Origin: a virus
Taxonomy: Duplodnaviria > Heunggongvirae > Uroviricota > Caudoviricetes
Reading direction: 5' to 3' (one strand)
IMG/VR virus record: IMGVR_UViG_2585427766_000020
Span: 1 to 11,053 of that record
DNA length: 11,053 bases
Shown: piece by piece, positions 1-11,053 of the stretch
Layout of the letters: each line of letters opens with the position of its first letter
Position numbering within the stretch: the first letter of the stretch is position 1
Made by a program: the position numbers and the translations under genes
The notes under the pieces: generated by a model
Seen by the model: the letters and a program-made list of their open reading frames with translations, nothing else
The model's database searches: none
Told to the model about the DNA's origin: nothing

Positions 1-273
1 CCGACTGCGGCCTGAGTTTTTTAAGTGACGTAAAATCGTGTTGAGGCCAACGCCCATAATGCGGGCAGTTGCCCGGCATCCAACGCCATTCATGGCCATA
101 TCAATGATTTTCTGGTGCGTACCGGGTTGAGAAGCGGTGTAAGTGAACTGCAGTTGCCATGTTTTACGGCAGTGAGAGCAGAGATAGCGCTGATGTCCGG
201 CGGTGCTTTTGCCGTTACGCACCACCCCGTCAGTAGCTGAACAGGAGGGACAGCTGATAGAAACAGAAGCCAC
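1..273 (-). CDS. insA: IS1 InsA (transposition regulator), 91 codons; stop codon lies just outside the window
   Basis: Minus-strand translation from GTG at 271-273 gives [18 protein letters not shown]...[12 protein letters not shown], matching InsA as I remember it. The 90-302 ORF in the supplied track is a different frame and is not InsA. Confidence 0.88.
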
Positions 274-301
274 TGGAGCACCTCAAAAACACCATCATAC
301 A

Positions 302-1096
302 CTAAATCAGTAAGTTGGCAGCATCACCTGAAAACGCTTTGTGGATTTTACCCATTTCTTCGACTTTTGCAGCACGCAGTTGATCCATTACTTTGTCATA
401 AGAGAATCCAGAAGAGTAGATACGATACCCTTTCAGAAACTTTTCATGCAGACGCTGAATATTGTCCAGTAAATAAGCGAATACTAGAGGTGAATCAATT
501 CCATCACTAACTGCTTGGATACTTTCAATCAGAATATCTAGCTTCTGATCCTTATGGGTATCATCATTGAAACAAGCTATAAGGTTATCAAGATACTCTC
601 TTTGCAAATTTTGTACATTTTCTGCAGCGAAGTGCGGTAATAGCTTGATAACTTCTTTTTTCAGAAAAACTAACTGACAAGTTGAGTTATCAAAGTAGGC
701 CGCGGCCTCTTTTAGCAGGTTAACGAACTCGAGAATCTTCCGGTAGTTGCTGATGAAAACGGGGATATCTTCATCATCATTACGAAACTTTGTTTCTAGG
801 ATGAAGTAATTAGCTGGCTCAAGGCACTGATGCTTTGGAGCATTTAGCAATTTTTCATGGGTGGAAAACACAAGTCCCAGTCCACTCCGTGGTGACGTCA
901 CACGTAGGATGATCGTGTTACCTGGAGCGATAGTGCCTGTATCAATAGAAAGACCATATTCACGAGGATCATCAAGCAAAGTATCAACCAGATCACAATC
1001 GGACTGATCTAAGAGCAACAGCGAACCGACACGAAACCCCTCTTGGAATTCCATACGACGATACAGATCTGTCAGCATCTCAAATGAAATCGCCAC
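302..1096 (-). CDS. Hypothetical protein, second gene of the YejK-like operon; C-terminus truncated by IS1 (last 8 codons GDAANLLI + stop are encoded by the IS1 repeat)
   Basis: GTG start at 1094-1096 with GAGG Shine-Dalgarno 7 nt upstream, 2-nt gap to the upstream gene's stop (translational coupling). Low GC. No domain recognisable by eye. 302-328 is IS1 sequence. Confidence 0.7.
   Translation of the reverse strand: MAISFEMLTDLYRRMEFQEGFRVGSLLLLDQSDCDLVDTLLDDPREYGLSIDTGTIAPGNTIILRVTSPRSGLGLVFSTHEKLLNAPKHQCLEPANYFILETKFRNDDEDIPVFISNYRKILEFVNLLKEAAAYFDNSTCQLVFLKKEVIKLLPHFAAENVQNLQREYLDNLIACFNDDTHKDQKLDILIESIQAVSDGIDSPLVFAYLLDNIQRLHEKFLKGYRIYSSGFSYDKVMDQLRAAKVEEMGKIHKAFSGDAANLLI
306..328 (-). 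repeat. IS1 terminal inverted repeat (insA-proximal end, 23 bp)
   Basis: Direct read: atcagtaagttggcagcatcacc on the + strand, the reverse complement of the IS1 IR. Confidence 0.9.
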
Positions 1097-1098
1097 GA

Positions 1099-2106
1099 TT
1101 AAACCTCAGTCATCCACATTTCCCTAAATTCTTCAGGTACATTACGTAGGGTGATAATATTTGTTTCCGGATCATAATCAATATAGCCTTCAGTTTTCCC
1201 TTCCCGGTCAAACTTAAGTTCCCAATATTTAGACTTGCCTTTAAAAGATACCAGAGCCCGAATGACTCGACCATCAGGAACGAAGCCATCCGATAACTCC
1301 AACTCTTCAGCAGCAAGTTTACCAGATAACTCCTCGGGAGCCTGGGGCCAAATGGCATTAACAAGGGTTTCAAGACTAAGTGGTTCACCAGCCTTACTTA
1401 GTGCATGTAAGTGTTCAAACGCACTCTTAAGAAATGCATCTTTTTCAGCGCCGTCAAGTCCTTTCTCTGCCGCAAATGCTTTTAAAACGTCACGTAACTT
1501 TTCAGACTCTCGTTTGGCGATTAAGACATCATTACAGCCGAGGAACTGTTTAAAATAGTTTGAAACATTACCTTGCCCCTTAAGAAAACTGATATAGCGC
1601 TCTGCGCCACTTTCCCACGCGGTTAAGTCAATGCGCCCAGCCATACGCAGCTTAGCAATATCAAGATAGGTACTATCTTGGATGTTAAAATCATCTGTGA
1701 CAGTGGATCCAATGGTAGCGCTTACAATAGCTATCAACAGGTGTTCATTGTGTCCTATCACGATATTTGCAAAAAGAACATAACCACCAGTAGCCATGTT
1801 TTCTCGCTGAGAACGTTCCGTCAGGTGATGCATCATTCGGCAGGAACTTTGGTAGAAATCATCAACACCTTCGAGAAAGTCCCCAGCCATTCGTTCCATA
1901 GGATAGTTATCCGTATCGCCTTCAAAATAGCCATAACCTTTACCTGTGCGTCCTGCATATTTTGCACAAATATCGTTTATAAGGCGCTGGGAGGCTTCAG
2001 TAACTAGACCTTCTTCAGGACTCAATCTCTCAGAAGCGTCTCCATTTTGTTGTTTGTCTAAAATGTGAACTACAACGTGTTTAACTTCAATGGTCTGCTC
2101 AGACAT
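1099..2106 (-). CDS. YejK/NdpA-family (NA37) nucleoid-associated protein homolog, 335 aa, mobile-element-borne divergent copy
   Basis: Same length as E. coli YejK (335 aa). Core TYLDIAKLRMAGRIDLTAWESGAERYISFLKG matches the remembered YejK block [20 protein letters not shown]...RYLTFLKG; C-terminal YIDYDPETNIITL resembles IFWDPATDTLTI. SD AAGGTGGA 6 nt upstream of ATG. AT-rich codon usage unlike the neighbouring phage genes. Confidence 0.8.
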   Translation of the reverse strand: MSEQTIEVKHVVVHILDKQQNGDASERLSPEEGLVTEASQRLINDICAKYAGRTGKGYGYFEGDTDNYPMERMAGDFLEGVDDFYQSSCRMMHHLTERSQRENMATGGYVLFANIVIGHNEHLLIAIVSATIGSTVTDDFNIQDSTYLDIAKLRMAGRIDLTAWESGAERYISFLKGQGNVSNYFKQFLGCNDVLIAKRESEKLRDVLKAFAAEKGLDGAEKDAFLKSAFEHLHALSKAGEPLSLETLVNAIWPQAPEELSGKLAAEELELSDGFVPDGRVIRALVSFKGKSKYWELKFDREGKTEGYIDYDPETNIITLRNVPEEFREMWMTEV

Positions 2107-2176
2107 TAGCTATCCACCTTATTTTTTATTGCTTAATGGCAAATAATTTCTGCTATATGTTCTCGTTAGGAACACA

Positions 2177-2584
2177 TTAACCCACATTTTTTAACCGCTC
2201 AATCGTTGCGGATAATTCCTTCAGTTGTTTTTCCATCTCAATCACACGCTGTTTTTCTTCAGCGCCTCGCATGAGATCTCGCCGAACCTCAGGATCTAAC
2301 TGGTTTAGAAGTTCAAGCATTTTAAGGTCTGACGGGCTGAATTGATGTTGTGTTGGTACAGCAACAATTTCTTTAGATGGAATATGTTCTTTACCGGTAA
2401 GTAGCCAATCGATCGATACACCCAAATGGGTGCTTAGCGCAACAAGAGCCTCTGCGTTTGGTTCTCTCTCTCCACGCAAATAGTTTTGAAGTGAGCGATA
2501 TGGAATTTTTGATAAGTTAGATAATGCCTTTATTGTCATGCCATTAGCATCCATCACTTCACGCAATCTCTCTTTTGTACTCAT
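2177..2584 (-). CDS. Phage repressor, XRE/CI-type HTH DNA-binding protein (135 aa) with coiled-coil C-terminal half and no S24 peptidase domain
   Basis: MSTKERLREVMDANGMTIKALSNLSKIPYRSLQNYLRGEREPNAEALVALSTHLGVSIDWLL is a typical HTH_XRE fold signature. Leftward, divergent from the early operon. ATG at 2582-2584 chosen over the 2680 start, which would overlap the rightward gene and promoter. Confidence 0.8.
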   Translation of the reverse strand: MSTKERLREVMDANGMTIKALSNLSKIPYRSLQNYLRGEREPNAEALVALSTHLGVSIDWLLTGKEHIPSKEIVAVPTQHQFSPSDLKMLELLNQLDPEVRRDLMRGAEEKQRVIEMEKQLKELSATIERLKNVG

Positions 2585-2600
2585 TTGAACATATCTCAAT

Positions 2601-2628
2601 TTGACACACTCATTTGGGTGTGTACAAT
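2601..2628 (+). promoter_or_regulatory. Sigma70-type early promoter for the rightward operon: TTGACA (2601-2606), 16-bp spacer, TACAAT (2623-2628)
   Basis: Near-consensus hexamers read directly, about 45 bp upstream of the Cro/Ner-like start. Confidence 0.55.
2604..2623. promoter_or_regulatory. Candidate repressor operator: inverted repeat ACACAC-N8-GTGTGT inside the early promoter spacer
   Basis: Perfect 6-bp arms read directly; lies between -35 and -10 where a repressor would occlude RNA polymerase. Confidence 0.45.
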
Positions 2629-2672
2629 AGACCCAATAGAGTACATCATAACCTAACAGGAACACGGTGCAT

Positions 2673-2897
2673 ATGAACAAACAACAAGTTCGGGCACGGC
2701 TGGTTGAACGAGGCAGTAGCTTGCGCCAGTTCGCGCTTAACGCGGGCTATGAACCACGAACAGTCACCCAGGCAGTCAGTCGCTGGGCTGGTAAAAGTGA
2801 ACTACCTCGCGGTCGTTTGACTTATCGGATTTTGCGAGATCTATCGGTTGCAATAGGTAAAGAAGTTACCCCCGGTATCCTTAAGGAGGCGTCATGA
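2673..2897 (+). CDS. Cro/Ner-like small DNA-binding protein (about 74 aa)
   Basis: First rightward gene after the switch. RLVERGSSLRQFALNAGYEPRTVTQAVS resembles the Mu Ner HTH region in pattern. ATG 2673 preferred; GTG 2667 is an alternative. Stop overlaps the next start (ATGA at 2894-2897). Confidence 0.6.
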   Translation: MNKQQVRARLVERGSSLRQFALNAGYEPRTVTQAVSRWAGKSELPRGRLTYRILRDLSVAIGKEVTPGILKEAS

Positions 2898-3202
2898 ATA
2901 AACCAAATACATCAAGCTCAGGTACCCGTATTTTGCGCGTTCTTAAGGCCTTACGTGGCCACGCTTTGAACGGTGTTTCTAACGGGGAACTAGCGGTTGC
3001 ACTGCACGAATCACCGGCAAACATCAACCGGGCACTTAACACGCTCATTGAAGAAGGGTTGGCTCTGAAACTAGAAAACGGGCGTTTCGCACCAGGCATC
3101 CAGTTGCTGCAGATCGCCATGGCCCACAGTAACGAGATGGCACGTGCACAGGATCGCATTAACGAAATCAACCAACGTGTTATTTCAGGTAGTCGTTTGT
3201 AA
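2894..3202 (+). CDS. Winged-helix HTH DNA-binding protein (102 aa), hypothetical
   Basis: Strong SD AAGGAGG at 2883-2889. ILRVLKALRGHALNGVSNGELAVALHESPANINRALNTLIEEGLA looks like a MarR/IclR-type wHTH. Confidence 0.6.
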   Translation: MNKPNTSSSGTRILRVLKALRGHALNGVSNGELAVALHESPANINRALNTLIEEGLALKLENGRFAPGIQLLQIAMAHSNEMARAQDRINEINQRVISGSRL

Positions 3203-3212
3203 GGAGTAATCA

Positions 3213-4124
3213 ATGGGACGCACCAAATCACCGGTTAGCACTGAACTGAACGTCGAGGTACCGCTGTCGGATGATCTCAATGTCAGTCTAAACGCCATGA
3301 CACAGCATCGCATGGAAATCATGCAACAGTTCGGCGATGGTCTGCCCTATGAGCGCGATCGTGTTGTCCATGAGGCACGCTTTTATATGGCACAGAGCGC
3401 TGAGGCCATGCTGGAGGCAGGTAAGCGGCTGATAATCCTTAAGGAAAATGAACCACACGGGGAGTTTATAAAGATTCTTGAAAGTGAGTTGGGGCTGGCA
3501 TACCGGACATCTGTGAGAATGATGCAAGCATCGACAAAATACTTATCCCCGGCGCTGAAACCAAATGTGCCAACGTTGGCACATTTGGGAAAAGCCAAAC
3601 TTTTCGAATTAATGACAGAAGACGACGAAGAGCTTGCCGAACTGGCCGACGGCGGCACAGTTGCCGGCCTGACGCTTGACGACGTTGATCGCATGTCAGT
3701 ACGTGAATTGCGTCAGGCCCTGCGCGAAGCGCGCGAAACCAACGCAGCACAACAGCGCGTACTCGCTGACAAAAATGAAAAAATAGACTCACTCTCCACC
3801 AGACTGGAGAAGAAATCCCGTATTCAGCCGCCTGAGCCTGATGAAGAGGTTAAGAAGCTGCGGGCGGAAGTGACAGCATTAGCGGTTGAGGCGGAATCTG
3901 CTATCGCCGTTCGACTGTCCAGCGCTTTTGAGACGCTGTGCGCATATTGTGCTGAAAACATGATTGATACCCCCAGAGACTTCATGGCAGGCCTGGTCTG
4001 TCAACTGGAAAGCACAGCGCGTAGCCTGCGCTCCACATTTGACCTGCCGGATGAGCCAACAGGCAATGCCGCGCCTTCATGGCTGACTGAGCCGACGCCA
4101 CAGATTAACGGGCTGGAGGCATAA
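3213..4124 (+). CDS. Hypothetical coiled-coil protein (303 aa) located between the regulators and the transposase
   Basis: SD AAGGAG at 3201-3206. Long intact ORF in the operon; C-terminal half has heptad-like charged repeats. No family confidently recognised. Confidence 0.6.
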   Translation: MGRTKSPVSTELNVEVPLSDDLNVSLNAMTQHRMEIMQQFGDGLPYERDRVVHEARFYMAQSAEAMLEAGKRLIILKENEPHGEFIKILESELGLAYRTSVRMMQASTKYLSPALKPNVPTLAHLGKAKLFELMTEDDEELAELADGGTVAGLTLDDVDRMSVRELRQALREARETNAAQQRVLADKNEKIDSLSTRLEKKSRIQPPEPDEEVKKLRAEVTALAVEAESAIAVRLSSAFETLCAYCAENMIDTPRDFMAGLVCQLESTARSLRSTFDLPDEPTGNAAPSWLTEPTPQINGLEA

Positions 4125-4127
4125 CCA

Positions 4128-5897
4128 ATGAATGCTGCCCTGACTGAACGACTGGTTTATGTCGCCCGCGCGGCACGTGACGCGGGGCATGGTAAACGCG
4201 GTGCAATATACGACGCTGCCTGTGCTGAACTTGGCATGTCCCGCGCCACTCTGCTGCGCAGGCTGAAGGAGGTCTCTGTGACTGATAAACGCAAAAAACG
4301 CGCTGATGCCGGACGCAGCGCCCTGACCCGCGACGAAGCCGCGCTGATATCTGCCACACTGCGTGAGGCCACCCGCAAGAACGGTAAGCGTCTCTATTCC
4401 ATCGCGGATGCAGTGGAAACCCTGCGGGCTAACGGCTTTATCTCCGCAGGCAGAACAGATGAAACCACCGGTGAGTTTTTCCCGTTGTCCGAAGATGCCA
4501 TCAGTCGTGCCCTGCGTAACTATGGCCTGCACCCGGAACAACTGGATGCTCCTGCGCCGCATACCGAAGTGGCCAGTCTGCATCCCAATCATGTCTGGCA
4601 GATTGATGCCTCGCTCTGCACGCTTTACTACCTGAGCAATGGACACAAAGGGCTGCAGGTGATGGACAGCGCGAAGTTCTACAAGAACAAACCCGCTAAC
4701 CTTGCCCGTATCGCCAGTGACCGCGTGTGGAGTTACGAGATTACCGACCATGCCAGCGGCTGGATTTACGTTGAGTATGTGACGGGTGCGGAATCCGGTG
4801 AGAACCTGTGTTCTGTGCTTATCAACGCCATGCAGGAGCGTGGCGGCGCAGACGTGCTGCACGGCGTGCCAAAAATACTCTATCTCGACCCCGGTTCGGC
4901 AAACACCGCGGGTATGACGAAAAACATGTGCCGCTCACTGGGCATTGACCTGATAGCGCACAAGCCGCATAACGCCCGCGCCACCGGACAGGTGGAAAAG
5001 GCGCGTGACATTATCGAACGCAAGCTGGAGCCGGGTCTGAAGTTCCGGCCGGTTCACAGTCTGGAAGAACTCAACGCGCTGGCCGCGAAATGGCGCAGCC
5101 ACTTTAACGCCACGGCTGTTCACAGCCGCCACGGTAAAACCCGCACGGATATCTGGCTGAAGATTACTGCTGAGCAGCTGAAAAAAGCGCCTTCCGTTGA
5201 GGTATGTCGTGAACTGGCTGTGGCGGCACCAGAACTCCGCAAAGTCACGCCAAAACTTCGTGTCTCGTTCCGGGGCACTGAATTTGACGTATCAACGGTA
5301 CCGGGCGTACTGGTCGGTGAAAAACTGATGATTACCCGTAACCCGTGGCGCAGCGATGTGGCACAGGTGGTTCTGACCGGTGAGGACGGCCACGAGACGT
5401 TCTTCCTGGTCGAAGAGGTCAGAAAGAACGAGTTTGGCTTTGCTGAAGGCGCGGCGGTATTTGGCGAAAGTTACAAAGCCCTGCCGGAAACCCCGGCGCA
5501 GATGGCGGCAAAAGAAACCGAAGCGCTGGTCACCGGTACAGACAACGCCGCAGATGCAGCTGCCGCACGCAAGGCGAAGGCGCTGCCGTTCGGCGGGCGG
5601 CTTGACCCGTATAAACATATTGATGACGCCACACTTCCGGCCTATATGCCGAAGCGAGGTCAGGCCTCTGACGTACGCGGACCGCGCACTGAACAGCGTC
5701 CCATGACTCATGTGGAGGCCGCGAAAGCCCTGCGCGGGAAGTTCAGCGCCAACGGCCTTACCTGGACGCCGGAACATTACCGCCAGTTAACGGCACAGTA
5801 CCCGGACGGCGTACCGGAAGCCGCACTGGATGAAGTCATGGCCACGCTGACCACGCCGGCCCGCAGCAGTGTTATCAGCATTGTTAACGGCAACTGA
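4128..5897 (+). CDS. DDE transposase of a transposable phage (Mu A-like, rve/integrase-core family), 589 aa
   Basis: SD GGAGG at 4115-4119. HPNHVWQIDASLCTLYY is typical of the first catalytic-Asp region of rve-type transposases. Followed by a B-like ATPase and by gam, gemA-like and mor. Confidence 0.8.
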   Translation: MNAALTERLVYVARAARDAGHGKRGAIYDAACAELGMSRATLLRRLKEVSVTDKRKKRADAGRSALTRDEAALISATLREATRKNGKRLYSIADAVETLRANGFISAGRTDETTGEFFPLSEDAISRALRNYGLHPEQLDAPAPHTEVASLHPNHVWQIDASLCTLYYLSNGHKGLQVMDSAKFYKNKPANLARIASDRVWSYEITDHASGWIYVEYVTGAESGENLCSVLINAMQERGGADVLHGVPKILYLDPGSANTAGMTKNMCRSLGIDLIAHKPHNARATGQVEKARDIIERKLEPGLKFRPVHSLEELNALAAKWRSHFNATAVHSRHGKTRTDIWLKITAEQLKKAPSVEVCRELAVAAPELRKVTPKLRVSFRGTEFDVSTVPGVLVGEKLMITRNPWRSDVAQVVLTGEDGHETFFLVEEVRKNEFGFAEGAAVFGESYKALPETPAQMAAKETEALVTGTDNAADAAAARKAKALPFGGRLDPYKHIDDATLPAYMPKRGQASDVRGPRTEQRPMTHVEAAKALRGKFSANGLTWTPEHYRQLTAQYPDGVPEAALDEVMATLTTPARSSVISIVNGN

Positions 5898-5907
5898 GGA
5901 GGAAAAC

Positions 5908-7074
5908 ATGCTGGTACTGAAGCAGCAACTGAAAGAGGCCCGTATTTCACAGGCGGTGGTGGCGAGAGCTGTCGATGTTTCTGAGGCCACGCTGGCCCAG
6001 ATTGTGAATCATAACGCGTGGCCCCGCACCAGCCCCGGAGAAGTGCGCCGGCGTCTTGCGTCCTGGCTGGAAAGTCAGGGGATTGATACAGCGAAGAGTT
6101 TTGATGCTGTACAGGGCGCGGCCACGCCCCGTACATCGGGTACCACAGATAAAACGAGCCTCAGTGAGGAAGAGAATATGTTACTCAAAAAACAGGTGTT
6201 ATTTCCAGCAACCAAAAAAGCGTTTGGTCTTTTCCGTGACCCGTTCGCCGACGAAGCCATGCAGGGTTCTGATGATGTGTTCACCACCCCGGACATTCGC
6301 TACGTGCGTGAGGCGTTGTACCAGACAGCACGTCATGGTGGGTTTATGGCCGTCATCGGTGAGTCCGGTGCGGGTAAATCCACGCTGCGCCGTGACCTGA
6401 CTGAACGTATCAACCGCGAGAATGCGCCAGTGATTGTTATCGAGCCATACATCATCGCTATGGAAGACAACGATGTGAAAGGGAAAACTCTGAAGGCAGC
6501 AGCGATTGCCGAAGCCATTATCAGTACCATCGCACCACTGGAAAGCATCAGACGCAGTCAGGACGCCCGCTTTCGCCAGTTGCATCGCGTCCTGAAAGAC
6601 AGCAGCCAGGCGGGGTTCAGCCACGTTCTGGTGATTGAGGAGGCCCACAGTCTGCCCATTCCGACACTGAAACACCTCAAACGCTTTTTTGAGCTGGAGT
6701 CCGGTTTCAAAAAACTGCTGTCCATCGTGCTAATTGGTCAGCCGGAACTGGCGACAAAACTGTCTGAACGCAATATGGAAGTCCGTGAAGTCGTTCAGCG
6801 CTGTGAGGTGGTCGAACTTCTGCCTCTGGACAATAACCTTGAAGAATTTCTGACGTTCAAACTGCAACGGGCCGGTAAACAACTGACGGACATTATGGAC
6901 GCCAGCGCAGTGGATGCCATACGTGCCCGCCTGAGCAATCCGGGAAGTCATCGTAAAAATATGGTCAGCCTGCTGTATCCGCTGGCCGTCAGTAACCTGG
7001 TAATAGCCGCCATGAATCTGGCTGCTGAAATCGGGGTTCCACAGGTCAACGCTGACGTTGTCAAAGGGGTTTAA
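5908..7074 (+). CDS. AAA+ ATPase, transposition target-DNA activator (Mu B-like/TniB-like), 388 aa
   Basis: SD GAGGAGG at 5896-5902, ATG 5908. N-terminal HTH-like segment, then Walker A GESGAGKST and Walker B-like HVLVIEEAH. Sits immediately after the transposase as in Mu A-B. Confidence 0.8.
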   Translation: MLVLKQQLKEARISQAVVARAVDVSEATLAQIVNHNAWPRTSPGEVRRRLASWLESQGIDTAKSFDAVQGAATPRTSGTTDKTSLSEEENMLLKKQVLFPATKKAFGLFRDPFADEAMQGSDDVFTTPDIRYVREALYQTARHGGFMAVIGESGAGKSTLRRDLTERINRENAPVIVIEPYIIAMEDNDVKGKTLKAAAIAEAIISTIAPLESIRRSQDARFRQLHRVLKDSSQAGFSHVLVIEEAHSLPIPTLKHLKRFFELESGFKKLLSIVLIGQPELATKLSERNMEVREVVQRCEVVELLPLDNNLEEFLTFKLQRAGKQLTDIMDASAVDAIRARLSNPGSHRKNMVSLLYPLAVSNLVIAAMNLAAEIGVPQVNADVVKGV

Positions 7075-7076
7075 TA

Positions 7077-7346
7077 ATGAAATCCACCACAGGTATCAAC
7101 CAGCAAATCAGCAAAGTGCAGTCAGCCATTATGGCGCTTAAGGCGACGAACACGGATGTACAAAGCATCACCATCAGGGGGAACAAACCTGTCATCCGCG
7201 TTTCCCGGAGTGCGCATTGCATGCGCATGCTTGAGCAGGGAAAGGCCTGTTATCTGTATACCGGACATGACCACAGGGGATATTTCCGTCAGGGCGTTTT
7301 CGAACTGCACGGCTGTCGCGTCGTGTGGCCGGAATCTTTGTGGTAA
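7077..7346 (+). CDS. Hypothetical early protein (89 aa)
   Basis: Intact ORF 2 nt after the B-like stop, same strand and operon. No family recognised. Confidence 0.5.
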   Translation: MKSTTGINQQISKVQSAIMALKATNTDVQSITIRGNKPVIRVSRSAHCMRMLEQGKACYLYTGHDHRGYFRQGVFELHGCRVVWPESLW

Positions 7347-7373
7347 TCAGCACAACCGGAGAAATCATAAAAA

Positions 7374-7904
7374 ATGGCAAAAAGTACAAAAGGTGCAAAA
7401 CGTATCAAGGCCGCAGCAGCACTCTGGGTGCCGGGGACACGTGAAGAGGTCATTGAGGGCATCAGACTGCTCGGTGACGCACACCGTGAACTGGTCAGGG
7501 CTGAAACAGAAATGAATGACGCCATTGGCGATATCACCGCACGTTATGCCCCGCTCACCGAGAGCCTGAAAAAACGCATGGCCGAACTGCAGTCCGGTAT
7601 TCAGACATGGTGTGAGGCACACCGTGATGAACTGACCGGCAACGGGAAGGTGAAGTTCGCTAACCTCACCACCGGCGAGGTGCAGTGGCGAAACCGTCCG
7701 CCATCAGTCAGTATCCGTGGGGCGGATAATGTTATTGAATTACTGAGACGTCTGGGGCTTGAGCGCTTTATCCGTGTAAAGGAGGAAATAAATAAAGACG
7801 CTATCCTGAATGAAAAGGACGCCGTGAAAAATATTCCCGGTATTACCATAAAAAGTGATATTGAGGATTTTTCAATAATTCCTTTTGAGCAGGATGTGCA
7901 GTAA
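7374..7904 (+). CDS. gam: Host-nuclease inhibitor protein Gam (Mu Gam family; binds DNA ends, protects against RecBCD)
   Basis: 176 aa. Blocks ETEMNDAI, WCEA.RDELT, PPSVSIRG and GIT.KS.IEDFSIIPFEQ match Mu Gam (174 aa) as I remember it. Confidence 0.9.
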   Translation: MAKSTKGAKRIKAAAALWVPGTREEVIEGIRLLGDAHRELVRAETEMNDAIGDITARYAPLTESLKKRMAELQSGIQTWCEAHRDELTGNGKVKFANLTTGEVQWRNRPPSVSIRGADNVIELLRRLGLERFIRVKEEINKDAILNEKDAVKNIPGITIKSDIEDFSIIPFEQDVQ

Positions 7905-8001
7905 ACACACCACGTTAATTATTTAATAAAAACATTTTCTTTTTTATTCCGGCGTCAGCGCCGTGGGCTTCTGCACGCCGGAAACAGAGGAGAATTAAAT
8001 T

Positions 8002-8196
8002 ATGATATTTAAATGTATTCAGTGCGAGAGGGATATAACAGCCCTGCGTTTTCACAGCGCCATCGCCGTGATGTCCGGTAAATACCACATCCCTGCGGTA
8101 CGCGTCACCCTGGTCTGCCCGTACTGCAGCCAGCATTTTTCGGCAGACGTGCCCGTCATGGAATTCTCCCGCCCTGACAGGGAGGACTCGCAATGA
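8002..8196 (+). CDS. Small zinc-ribbon-like protein (64 aa), hypothetical
   Basis: Two CxxC pairs (CIQC...CPYC). SD GAGGAG at 7987-7992. Stop overlaps the next start. Confidence 0.5.
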   Translation: MIFKCIQCERDITALRFHSAIAVMSGKYHIPAVRVTLVCPYCSQHFSADVPVMEFSRPDREDSQ

Positions 8197-8465
8197 TTAC
8201 CCCACAGGAAGCACGACAGCGCACCCGAACCCTTGTTGAACACTATGTCAACGAGTGTGAATGCCGCGACCTCACCGATGTGAAGCACGTCCTGACGGCG
8301 CTAATCAGCATGACCGCTCAGGCCATTGTGGCGACCAACGGAAAGGCGGCTGCCCTGCAGGTACTGGTGAACACACTAACCCACACGGCAGCGCATGAGG
8401 TGCCGTACCGGATGGAAACCACTGCAGAAGGCGGTCTGCACATCACCGTCAGCCGGAATCACTGA
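8193..8465 (+). CDS. Hypothetical protein (90 aa)
   Basis: ATGA start/stop overlap with the upstream gene; GC-rich coding-like composition. No family recognised. Confidence 0.5.
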   Translation: MITPQEARQRTRTLVEHYVNECECRDLTDVKHVLTALISMTAQAIVATNGKAAALQVLVNTLTHTAAHEVPYRMETTAEGGLHITVSRNH

Positions 8466-8474
8466 GGGCGCAGC

Positions 8475-8780
8475 ATGACACGGTACACCATACTCACCCG
8501 CACCGCCCTCTACCGTCTGGCCCTGCAGCGTTTCGGGCCGGACGCACAGGCCCTGAAACTGACAGAAGAGGCCGCTGAACTGGCAGCCTGTGCTGCCCGC
8601 AACCTGAACGGACAGGGCAGTGAAAGTGACCTCGCGGCAGAGCTGGCAGACGTGGAAATCATGACAGAGCAGTTGCGCCTTCAGGGGATGGACCGGCTGA
8701 TTGACTTCCACAAACAGAAAAAACTGGAACGCCTTGCCGCACGGCTGGGCGTCATGTACACCGGAGATACTGAACAATGA
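8475..8780 (+). CDS. MazG-like nucleotide pyrophosphohydrolase family protein (101 aa)
   Basis: LKLTEEAAELAACAARNL...ESDLAAELADVEIM resembles the EExxE / ELADV helical signature of small MazG-like all-alpha NTP pyrophosphatases. Assignment from motif pattern only. Confidence 0.6.
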   Translation: MTRYTILTRTALYRLALQRFGPDAQALKLTEEAAELAACAARNLNGQGSESDLAAELADVEIMTEQLRLQGMDRLIDFHKQKKLERLAARLGVMYTGDTEQ

Positions 8781-9460
8781 CAGACTTGGATAAACACATT
8801 GAAAAACTGAAAAAGTTGCTGGCGCTGGCAGCATCCGGCAACCCGTATGAGGCTGCTCTGGCACTGCGCCGCGCCCGTAAACTGATGGATGTTCACGGCA
8901 TCACACATTCCGACATTGCCATGAGTGATATTGATGAAACCATCAGTCATTACTGGCCGACAGGCAGTCTCCGTCCACCGCGCTACATGCTGGGCCTGAT
9001 GAACATCATCCGCGAGGCATTTGGTGTTAACTCCATAATTCACCCCGGCACATATCCGGGTGTGGGGTTCTACGGCAACCGGGAACGGGCCGCACTGGCT
9101 GCGTACACCTGGGAAGTGCTGGCCCGCCAGCTGAAAAAGGCGCGTCAGCAGTATATCAGCGCACAGAACAAAAGAATAAAAACTGCCACCCGTACCAGCC
9201 GTGGTGACCAGTTTGCTGAAGGCTGGGTGCTGGCCGTTATCAGTGAAATACAGTCCTTCGCCCTGACCGATGACGAACGTGAACTGATGCAGCAGTGGCT
9301 GGAACATAAATACCCGCAGACGCAAACCACCAGGGCGCGTAAACCGGGAAGAAGCCGCAATGGCGACGCCTCGCGCTATGCGGGGTTTCGTGAAGGGCAG
9401 AACGTCAGACTGCACCGCCCGGTCAGTGGGCAGGAACAACAGAAACTGGAGGCCAGATGA
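8777..9460 (+). CDS. DUF2786-like phage protein (227 aa)
   Basis: N-terminal IEKLKKLLALAASGNPYEAALALRRARKLM is the characteristic DUF2786 motif, common in Mu-like and other phages. ATGA overlap with the upstream stop. Confidence 0.65.
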   Translation: MTDLDKHIEKLKKLLALAASGNPYEAALALRRARKLMDVHGITHSDIAMSDIDETISHYWPTGSLRPPRYMLGLMNIIREAFGVNSIIHPGTYPGVGFYGNRERAALAAYTWEVLARQLKKARQQYISAQNKRIKTATRTSRGDQFAEGWVLAVISEIQSFALTDDERELMQQWLEHKYPQTQTTRARKPGRSRNGDASRYAGFREGQNVRLHRPVSGQEQQKLEAR

Positions 9461-9687
9461 TTACGCTATCAGGTAACAGCCGGAAATTAAAAGCCTGCCG
9501 AATATCTGCCAGATACCTTTTTGCCCGCGCCTTTTTTAAGAACGTAAGGCCGGGGATCACAATTGGTGTTATTGCCGGACGCGAACAGGTTGAAAAATAC
9601 ATGTCAGGTGCATGGTGGAATAACGACCCTGTCATTGCTGCCCGTAATATTCATATCAGTTGGGGGGATATTCAGAATGACGGCTGA
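9457..9687 (+). CDS. Hypothetical protein (76 aa)
   Basis: ATGA overlap with upstream gene; in-operon ORF. Confidence 0.45.
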   Translation: MITLSGNSRKLKACRISARYLFARAFFKNVRPGITIGVIAGREQVEKYMSGAWWNNDPVIAARNIHISWGDIQNDG

Positions 9688-9892
9688 ATCTGTTGTATGT
9701 GCCCTGTTCTGGTATTGTTTTGTCGGTTGGTGTACTGCTGAACTGCACCGCCGTTCAGGGTTTTATTCACGTTACAGTGGTGCCGGCTACTGGATTAGCT
9801 GGTCGGTGATGTTCCTGTGCTGGCCTGTGGCGCTTCCTTTATATGTCGATTATATCGGTGGCGCAGGTAAAAGGAGCAACGATGATGACTAA
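9677..9892 (+). CDS. Small membrane protein with two predicted transmembrane segments (about 71 aa)
   Basis: Internal ATG at 9677 of the 9563-9892 ORF chosen to minimise overlap. Hydrophobic stretches VVCALFWYCFVGWC and YWISWSVMFLCWPVALPLYV. Confidence 0.45.
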   Translation: MTAESVVCALFWYCFVGWCTAELHRRSGFYSRYSGAGYWISWSVMFLCWPVALPLYVDYIGGAGKRSNDDD

Positions 9893-10334
9893 ACAACGTC
9901 TTATCCAGCTCATTCATATTGCCCGTAATGAACTGGGTATGGATGAAGACACCTACCGCCAGATGTTACAGGGGCTGACCGGTAAAGCCTCAACCAAAGG
10001 AATGGATACCACACAACTAAACTGCGTGCTGGAATCCATGAAAAGGAAAGGCTTTCGCGTTAAGCCTGCCAGAAAAGCCAGCTCCGGTTTACCGCTGGAT
10101 AACCATCCGCAGTCCAGGAAAATCCGTGCGCTATGGCTTGAAATGGCTGCTGCCGGCATTGTTCGTGACCGTTCAGAAAATGCATTAGCGCGGTGGATCA
10201 AGCGGGAAACGGGCATCAGCGCCCTGCGCTGGCTCAATACTGAACAGGCAAGCAGTGTTATTGAGAAACTGAAGAAGTGGCAGCACAGAGCTGCGGGAGT
10301 AAAACATGAGCGACCTGAATCAGTTTCGAAGTAA
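9882..10334 (+). CDS. gemA: GemA/gp16-like protein (Mu-like prophage gp16 family, DUF1018)
   Basis: SD AAGGAG at 9871-9876, ATG 9882. RLIQLIHIARNELGMDEDTYRQMLQGLTGKAS matches the remembered N-terminal signature of the Mu gp16/GemA family. Sits immediately upstream of mor as in Mu. Confidence 0.7.
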   Translation: MMTKQRLIQLIHIARNELGMDEDTYRQMLQGLTGKASTKGMDTTQLNCVLESMKRKGFRVKPARKASSGLPLDNHPQSRKIRALWLEMAAAGIVRDRSENALARWIKRETGISALRWLNTEQASSVIEKLKKWQHRAAGVKHERPESVSK

Positions 10335-10695
10335 AGGGCCGGAACTCCTGGTGGAACTGGCACAGCATACCTCTGAGACCGTTCGCGAGATTATTGATAT
10401 TGAGCCCGCAATTGCCGACCAGATTGGTCAGGCCGTCGCGAACCGCATGATGCAGGTCTGGGGCGGGCAAAACGTTTATTTCCCGATGGGCATGGTATGG
10501 AAGGTCAGTCAGCGCGACCGGGAAATCTTCAGGGAGTTTAACGGACGTAACCACCATGAACTGGCCCGCAAATTTGGTGTTTCGCTTCAGTGGGTCTACA
10601 GCGTGGTTAAGCGGGTAAGAAAAGAAGAACTGGATCGGATGCAGGGCAAGCTATTTGCTGATGAACCCGATGTAGATACGGAGAAAAAAGAGTAA
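10306..10695 (+). CDS. mor: Middle operon regulator Mor (Mor/C family transcription activator), 129 aa
   Basis: Same length as Mu Mor. VYFP and FNGRNHHELARKFGVSLQWVYSVVKRVRK match the Mor/C-family conserved FNGRN...Y and HTH region. Overlaps the gemA-like 3' end by 29 nt. Confidence 0.85.
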   Translation: MSDLNQFRSKGPELLVELAQHTSETVREIIDIEPAIADQIGQAVANRMMQVWGGQNVYFPMGMVWKVSQRDREIFREFNGRNHHELARKFGVSLQWVYSVVKRVRKEELDRMQGKLFADEPDVDTEKKE

Positions 10696-10724
10696 TATCT
10701 GCAATCAGGCTGGAGCGAGTTCTG

Positions 10725-11053
<329 letters not shown>

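Follow-up and report, generated by a model that had tools for sequence, protein, structure and literature searches.

Described systems closest to the locus

Anti-phage systems in which a YejK-like protein acts together with a second protein were reported in 2025-26. One of them, DS-1 (working id D390 in the DefensePredictor study; Science 2026, PMC13092281), is a validated E. coli system made up of WP_000355468.1 (391 amino acids (aa), YejK domain) and, 2 nt further on, WP_000150292.1 (404 aa) (PMC13092281). Cloned in MG1655 with its native promoter region, DS-1 gave a -log efficiency of plating (EOP) of 7.6 for Bas1 and 2.7 for Bas26, with weaker effects on Bas3 and T3 (1.7) and on T5 (1.0) (PMC13092281, Table S7). 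The other, PANGU (bioRxiv 10.64898/2026.04.06.716658, April 2026), has a YejK-like protein on the nucleoid, which is freed when T4 EndoII degrades host DNA and then binds an acidic, DNA-mimicking domain of the effector. Its type II, described as widespread and horizontally transferred, consists of the nucleoid protein Pag2A and the effector Pag2B, which has an acidic N-terminal (DMK) domain and a C-terminal transmembrane domain; nucleoid localisation was reported for Pag1A and Pag2A (bioRxiv 10.64898/2026.04.06.716658). In the type II system PANGU-Ecu both genes are required, and a KD of 19 nM was reported for binding of the nucleoid protein by the acidic domain on its own. At a multiplicity of infection of 10, PANGU-Ecu cultures showed no collapse, scant growth and lower phage titres, which the authors read as abortive infection (bioRxiv 10.64898/2026.04.06.716658). 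Here we describe a pair of genes, one encoding a YejK-like (NA37) protein and the other a partner protein, located next to a prophage repressor gene in an 11,053-nt stretch of DNA (IMG/VR record IMGVR_UViG_2585427766_000020, positions 1 to 11,053; hereafter the window).

The analysis indicates that this locus is quite probably a two-gene abortive-infection defence cassette of the DS-1/type II PANGU kind, belonging to the accessory cargo of a Mu-like prophage. This interpretation is based on homology to the validated DS-1, on the PANGU-like architecture, on conservation of the pair and on its mobile accessory character. Coordinates of all features are collected in Table 1.

Both proteins of the pair are related to DS-1

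The initial annotation described the first gene as a complete paralogue of host yejK. This was borne out by an end-to-end match of the 335-aa protein to Pfam NA37 (PF04245, E=1e-80) and by 28% full-length identity to YejK of E. coli K-12 (b2186), which has the same length and is likewise covered by the NA37 domain from end to end. The protein also matched phrog_3767 in PHROGs (E=7e-117), the YejK structure 9be2 in PDB (E=7e-30) and the NCBIfam model DS1_1_antiphage ('nucleoid-associated anti-phage protein', NF053868; E=1.4e-17, 63.7 bits). The possibility that the gene is simply the chromosomal yejK orthologue was ruled out: it scored only 186 bits against an NCBIfam equivalog cut-off of 341 bits for YejK, and its neighbours differ from rplY and yejL, between which chromosomal yejK sits. 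Unlike yejK, the window gene lies in a prophage, is coupled in an operon to a gene for a membrane protein, has a low GC content and is found in just 19 of 5426 complete E. coli genomes (in 18 of them at no less than 99% identity).

The partner gene starts with a GTG at 1096, 2 nt past the NA37 stop, and its Shine-Dalgarno sequence GAGG lies inside the end of the upstream gene; the two genes are co-oriented and coupled, as had been noted initially. Gene order and the 2-nt gap are identical in DS-1 (window 1099/1096; DS-1 221777/221780), and in both systems a NA37/YejK protein is followed by a protein of about 400 aa with C-terminal membrane helices, the latter being present in intact copies of the window-type pair.

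Both proteins are homologous to their DS-1 counterparts over most of their length. BLASTP aligned the NA37 protein with DS-1A at 23% identity over 196 aa (E=8e-9) and the partner with DS-1B, also at 23% identity (E=6e-10). Comparison by hhalign of a profile of 59 partner relatives with a profile of 33 DS-1B relatives gave a probability of 99.2% (E=2.8e-19) over 353 columns, which is approximately the whole protein. The partner had been presented initially as a protein without a recognisable domain, and a Pfam search did find zero domains in it. This description did not extend to other databases: the partner matched NCBIfam DS1_2_antiphage (NF053869; E=3e-21, 75.9 bits) and phrog_5023 of PHROGs (E=6e-143), and the DS1_2 model matched all 59 of its relatives. 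Differences from DS-1 were also evident. DS-1A carries an N-terminal zinc-ribbon extension of about 40 aa (CxxC...CxxC) that is missing from the window protein, and DS-1 and the window family form separate sets in the protein database. Judged by its sequence, the window pair is a related subfamily of DS-1 and not an equivalog.

The two genes are conserved as a unit, a point on which the initial proposal depended. The NA37 gene is located directly upstream of the partner gene on the same strand in 46 of 48 IMG/VR loci, the two exceptions being cut by a contig end, and all four of the other contexts inspected, with identities as low as 22%, had the same arrangement. Across 35 loci the two proteins diverge in step with each other (r=0.97), which fits an interacting pair. 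The partner family comprises 166 clusters at 90% identity, mostly from Enterobacterales with additional members in Shewanella and Paraburkholderia; a wider partner profile retrieved 1302 clusters at 50% identity.

The putative membrane effector and its truncation by IS1

In the module-carrying E. coli genomes the intact partner is a protein of 401 aa (WP_001007985.1); one such uninterrupted pair is located at NZ_CP086627.1:1584186-1586401. Its AlphaFold2 model (pLDDT 82) comprises an alpha/beta N-terminal domain (approximately aa 1-175) followed by a helical region, in which a long helix (aa 213-275) enters the membrane. Hydrophobic helices at aa 262-280, 285-311 and 356-378 are predicted to be membrane helices. 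The cytoplasmic N-terminal part is acidic and the C-terminal part basic: the charge of aa 1-255 is -11 net (pI 5.0), compared with a family median of -7 and with -9 for DS-1B. The most conserved block of the family spans aa 249-275, with a column identity of about 0.9.

Two possible relationships of the membrane part were considered and rejected. PADLOC reported a match of the partner C-terminus to Kiwa KwaA (E=8e-5). Since just 3-4 of the 59 family members give this match, it looks like a reflection of membrane-helix composition and not of kinship; in addition, membership of Kiwa is ruled out by the neighbouring gene, which encodes a NA37 protein and not KwaB (DUF4868). The succession of an alpha/beta domain, a long stalk helix and C-terminal membrane helices weakly suggests a CorA-like layout. 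The hallmarks of a CorA-type channel, namely the CorA fold and a GMN motif closing the first membrane helix, were not found.

In the window itself the partner gene is interrupted by IS1, as the initial annotation had stated. The IS1A part is 100% identical to IS1A copies from thousands of plasmids, and the resulting 264-aa open reading frame (ORF) is chimeric, joining 256 native codons out of 401 (1096 down to 329) to eight IS1 codons and an IS1-derived stop. The cut, after aa 256, falls inside the most conserved block. Because IS1 removed everything past residue 256, including all three predicted membrane helices (aa 262-378), the window copy should be inactive; at most it would supply the sensor and a soluble decoy domain. 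The insertion site is uninterrupted in all 19 complete E. coli genomes that contain the module. The 264-aa allele is recorded, with equal length, on 49 contigs (WP_249402568.1), and therefore this dead allele seems to have spread by clonal descent.

Tolerance of IS1 within a putative toxin gene, and the presence of two tightly coupled genes of which one encodes a potentially toxic membrane protein, would suit a toxin-antitoxin or addiction pair stabilising the prophage, with the NA37 protein as the antidote. Such a pair had been listed as an alternative from the outset, and we can hardly credit it. None of the published PANGU constructs, single-gene ones included, was toxic, and the NA37 component of PANGU is an activator and not an antidote (bioRxiv 10.64898/2026.04.06.716658). 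Pfam and PADLOC searches with the window pair gave no match to a toxin-antitoxin family.

Genomic contexts of the pair

The pair occurs in several kinds of location. In Mu-like prophages it lies between the repressor gene or dam and the holin-transglycosylase lysis genes. In lambdoid prophages it is flanked by the lysis genes on one side and the gene for antiterminator Q on the other, in most cases antisense to the lysis genes and sometimes co-directional with them; DS-1 relatives use the same Q-holin slot, and a close DS-1 relative occupies the identical position in a lambdoid prophage. A pair was also found on a Paraburkholderia chromosomal island near a gene for an Mrr-like restriction enzyme. 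Intact copies of the window phage are present at differing chromosomal positions among strains, as would be expected of a transposable phage. When cultured phages were searched by megablast, only the repressor region was matched; tblastn found partner homologues at no more than 40% identity in Klebsiella phage Kp4865-4, Sinorhizobium phage phi2LM21 and a few others.

The slots that hold the pair are variable in content. One phage whose repressor region is 82% identical has an unrelated gene of 175 aa in the position of the pair. Among 21 related Mu-like phages (L062-L082), the two slots around dam (holin-dam and dam-repressor) contain at least 15 unrelated cargo families, and the NA37 pair was found in either slot. 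In relatives of the window prophage these slots correspond to the region left of window position 302, beyond IS1. Their cargo includes a SLATT-like protein with two transmembrane helices (L065:313-861), a P-loop-like protein of 247 aa and several small membrane proteins. A search of ten representatives for known defence families (PADLOC, NCBIfam) produced one weak SLATT-like match. The dam region was considered as a defence hotspot and not accepted as such, since with one weak match in ten scanned representatives the variability of the slots leaves enrichment unproven.

At lambdoid loci (L006:4690-4950, L060:5560-5823 and others) members of the window family and DS-1 relatives lie antisense between Q and the holin gene. 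Loci of both families share an upstream backbone motif (ACGATAGTTTTTGCGTACGC...), which may be the phage late-promoter/qut region; if this is the case, Q would be separated from its promoter by the inserted cassettes.

The location of the pair beside the lysis cassette in both phage types could be explained by a function in the phage life cycle, either in tethering or reorganising the nucleoid for replicative transposition or in the timing of lysis together with holin and endolysin. The Mu-like nature of the window prophage (rve transposase, AAA_22 ATPase, Gam, GemA and Mor) would fit the former, and the co-directional position directly upstream of the holin gene in some phages (L004, L015-L025) would fit the latter. 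We nevertheless find this explanation highly improbable. The majority of lambdoid copies run opposite to the late/lysis operon, and close relatives of the window phage dispense with the pair, carrying unrelated cargo in its slot. The pair also exists outside phages, near the Mrr-like restriction enzyme, and in phages that are not transposable, which disfavours the role of transposition helper that had been entertained initially. Moreover, the homologous DS-1 gives protection from a plasmid free of phage genes.

Linkage to the repressor and expression of the pair

In the window the stop codon of the repressor gene, at 2177, is separated from the NA37 gene by a spacer of 70 nt. A search of the spacer for a terminator-like site found none, and the stability of its small AU-rich hairpin does not exceed that of shuffled sequence (z=0.23), in line with the initial annotation of a repressor 70 bp upstream on the same strand with no terminator between. 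Co-transcription of the pair with the repressor gene is plausible in the window phage, and the pair would probably be made in the lysogen by read-through from that gene, given this terminator-less gap. The sole candidate for a promoter of the pair's own, a 9/12 match within the repressor gene, was at chance level and was discarded.

About 50 nt next to the ATG of the NA37 gene (window 2107-2160) travel with the cassette in other phages (e.g. L015:4940-4990). This stretch is conserved even where dam intervenes between repressor and pair (L015, L025), and it holds an imperfect palindrome that is perfect in L015: ACTGTTTG-TCAT-CAAACAGT. The palindrome could function as an operator or form a leader hairpin; the window version is not more stable than shuffled sequence.

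The arrangement of repressor and pair resembles lambda cI-rexA-rexB, where the prophage repressor gene is likewise followed on its own strand by two genes, of which one encodes a membrane effector, and where the outcome is abortive infection. The two loci share no sequence similarity, PADLOC and Pfam give nothing Rex-like for the window pair, and the putative sensor of the window is paralogous to a host nucleoid protein. The linkage to the repressor, which had been taken initially as the architecture of a rex-like cassette, is not conserved in the window family. Because related Mu-like phages (L015, L025) have dam, in opposite orientation, interposed between repressor and pair, this linkage is a trait of the window phage lineage and not of the defence system; the lambdoid copies, located between Q and the lysis genes, agree with this.

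Proposed mode of action

Given that the 335-aa protein is a YejK homologue and that Pag1A and Pag2A localise to the nucleoid, it would be expected to coat the host chromosome. The 401-aa partner is predicted, from its sequence and the AlphaFold2 model, to be anchored in the inner membrane by the three C-terminal helices with its acidic N-terminal part in the cytoplasm. Degradation or remodelling of host DNA by an infecting phage would free the NA37 protein, which, by analogy with PANGU-Ecu, could then bind the acidic, putatively DNA-like domain of the partner. Binding would switch on the membrane domain, probably through oligomerisation into a pore or leak, and the infected cell would stop growing before the phage cycle is completed.

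This scheme follows the architecture of type II PANGU, with which the intact window-type pair shares a bicistronic organisation of a YejK-like protein and an acidic/transmembrane effector, a likeness judged by architecture. The C-terminal transmembrane domain of the type II effector has its equivalent in intact copies and has been lost from the window copy by IS1. PANGU was found through linkage to defence islands, prophages being unmentioned, whereas the window family is present chiefly in prophage cargo slots.

A membrane protein encoded by a prophage might also act in superinfection exclusion at entry, that is by blocking DNA injection, without abortive infection after the sensing of damage. 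The mode by which Pag2A activates Pag2B was left open by the PANGU authors, which gives this explanation some room (bioRxiv 10.64898/2026.04.06.716658). It nevertheless seems to us quite unlikely, as PANGU-Ecu needs both genes and its phenotype was read as abortive infection, and as Pag2A departs from the nucleoid only after infection (bioRxiv 10.64898/2026.04.06.716658). A nucleoid protein co-evolving with the membrane protein would also be needless for a block at entry.

We therefore return to the abortive-infection cassette, against which several points have to be weighed. Neither gene is recognised by PADLOC v2 models. Identity to DS-1 is about 23%, and the scores with the NCBIfam models fall below the equivalog cut-offs (64 vs 330 bits for the NA37 protein and 76 vs 315 bits for the partner). 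The defence experiments concern DS-1 and PANGU, and a defence function would extend to the window subfamily by homology. The proposed kinship with Pag2A and Pag2B comes from their described architecture and not from sequence comparison, and DNA mimicry by the N-terminal domain of the partner is suggested by its net charge. The T4 EndoII trigger was established for type I PANGU (bioRxiv 10.64898/2026.04.06.716658). Expression of the window pair in the lysogen is presumed from the gene arrangement.

It is also conceivable, though we think it unlikely, that the window-type subfamily differs in function from the described systems. In this case the effector, whose best-conserved element is the helix leading into the first membrane span, may be a new channel gated by a nucleoid protein, and in Mu-like phages the pair may act as a repressor-linked, lysogen-specific sentinel that tolerates or answers the phage's own replicative transposition.

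The locus had been put forward in the initial annotation as an undescribed defence system expressed in the lysogen, with no defence system built on a NA37 protein being known. Its interpretation as a defence cassette has been strengthened by the homology to DS-1, by conservation as a unit and by the variable prophage slots. The claim of novelty has to be withdrawn, as DS-1 (PMC13092281) and PANGU (bioRxiv 10.64898/2026.04.06.716658) are both built on such proteins. The kind of system is already known (DS-1, 2025-26; PANGU, 2026), and the window pair is a divergent putative member of it located in prophage cargo slots.

Organisation of the window

The window comes from an E. coli chromosome, and its plus strand carries, from 2667 to about 10700, the early operon of a transposable, Mu-like prophage. 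Three minus-strand genes, those for the repressor and the 335-aa protein and the 264-aa ORF, diverge from this operon (Table 1). The repressor assignment was made by Pfam and by the RefSeq annotation of the identical sequence. The 82-nt region between the repressor gene and the ner-like gene contains a strong sigma-70-like promoter, which is presumably the early promoter under repressor control. The last phage gene, mor, is followed after approximately 150 nt by a host aldo-keto reductase gene, which we take to be one resembling dkgA; the junction between the two (10696-10850) is the prophage end.

Table 1. Positions of features in the 11,053-nt window. Promoter coordinates were converted from L001 (6100-6073; window position = 8701 - L001 position).
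Feature	Position	Strand	Remarks
IS1A element end	1..328	-	terminal inverted repeat GGTGATGCTGCCAACTTACTGAT (minus-strand reading) begins at 328; interrupts partner gene
Truncated putative effector gene (partner; DS-1B-like, resembling Pag2B)	302..1096	-	264-aa ORF
NA37/YejK-like nucleoid-associated protein gene, putative sensor (DS-1A-like, resembling Pag2A)	1099..2106	-	intact, 335 aa
Spacer between repressor gene and NA37 gene	2107..2176	-	70 nt; ribosome-binding site AAGGTGG
Prophage repressor	2177..2584	-	135 aa from annotated ATG; Pfam HTH_3/Phage_CI_repr
Sigma-70-like promoter	2601..2628	+	TTGACA-16-TACAAT, 11/12; points away from repressor, toward early transposition operon
Ner-like regulator	from 2667	+	first of the listed early genes
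rve-type transposase	4128-5897	+	
MuB-like AAA ATPase	5869-7074	+	AAA_22
Gam	7374-7904	+	
GemA	9843-10334	+	
Mor	10306-10695	+	last phage gene
Aldo-keto reductase gene	at 10850	-	host gene; opposite strand to mor

The foreign composition attributed initially to the pair was confirmed, with a GC content of 0.38-0.44 over the module compared with 0.50-0.63 in the transposition genes. A second dip, to 0.41, was observed at 7650-8100, just past gam, the rest of the early operon being at 0.52-0.62. This stretch, which contains a 64-aa ORF (8002-8196) with two CxxC pairs, may represent a further small cargo gene. A search of the whole window against Rfam found zero RNA elements.

Implications

From the raw sequence the initial annotation had picked out a class of immune system for which experimental reports date only from 2025-26, in which a copy of a housekeeping chromosome-binding protein is reused as an infection sensor. 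The present analysis adds a separate and sizeable family homologous to DS-1, which is unseen by PADLOC v2 and falls below the NCBIfam cut-offs. Its members mostly occupy the cargo slots of prophages, Mu-like and lambdoid, and not the defence islands that revealed PANGU. The IS1-truncated allele, recorded on 49 contigs, is a presumed natural null that would be usable as a negative control, and the co-varying divergence of the two proteins together with the conserved juxtamembrane block should help to elucidate effector activation. The added value for the field is modest but concrete.

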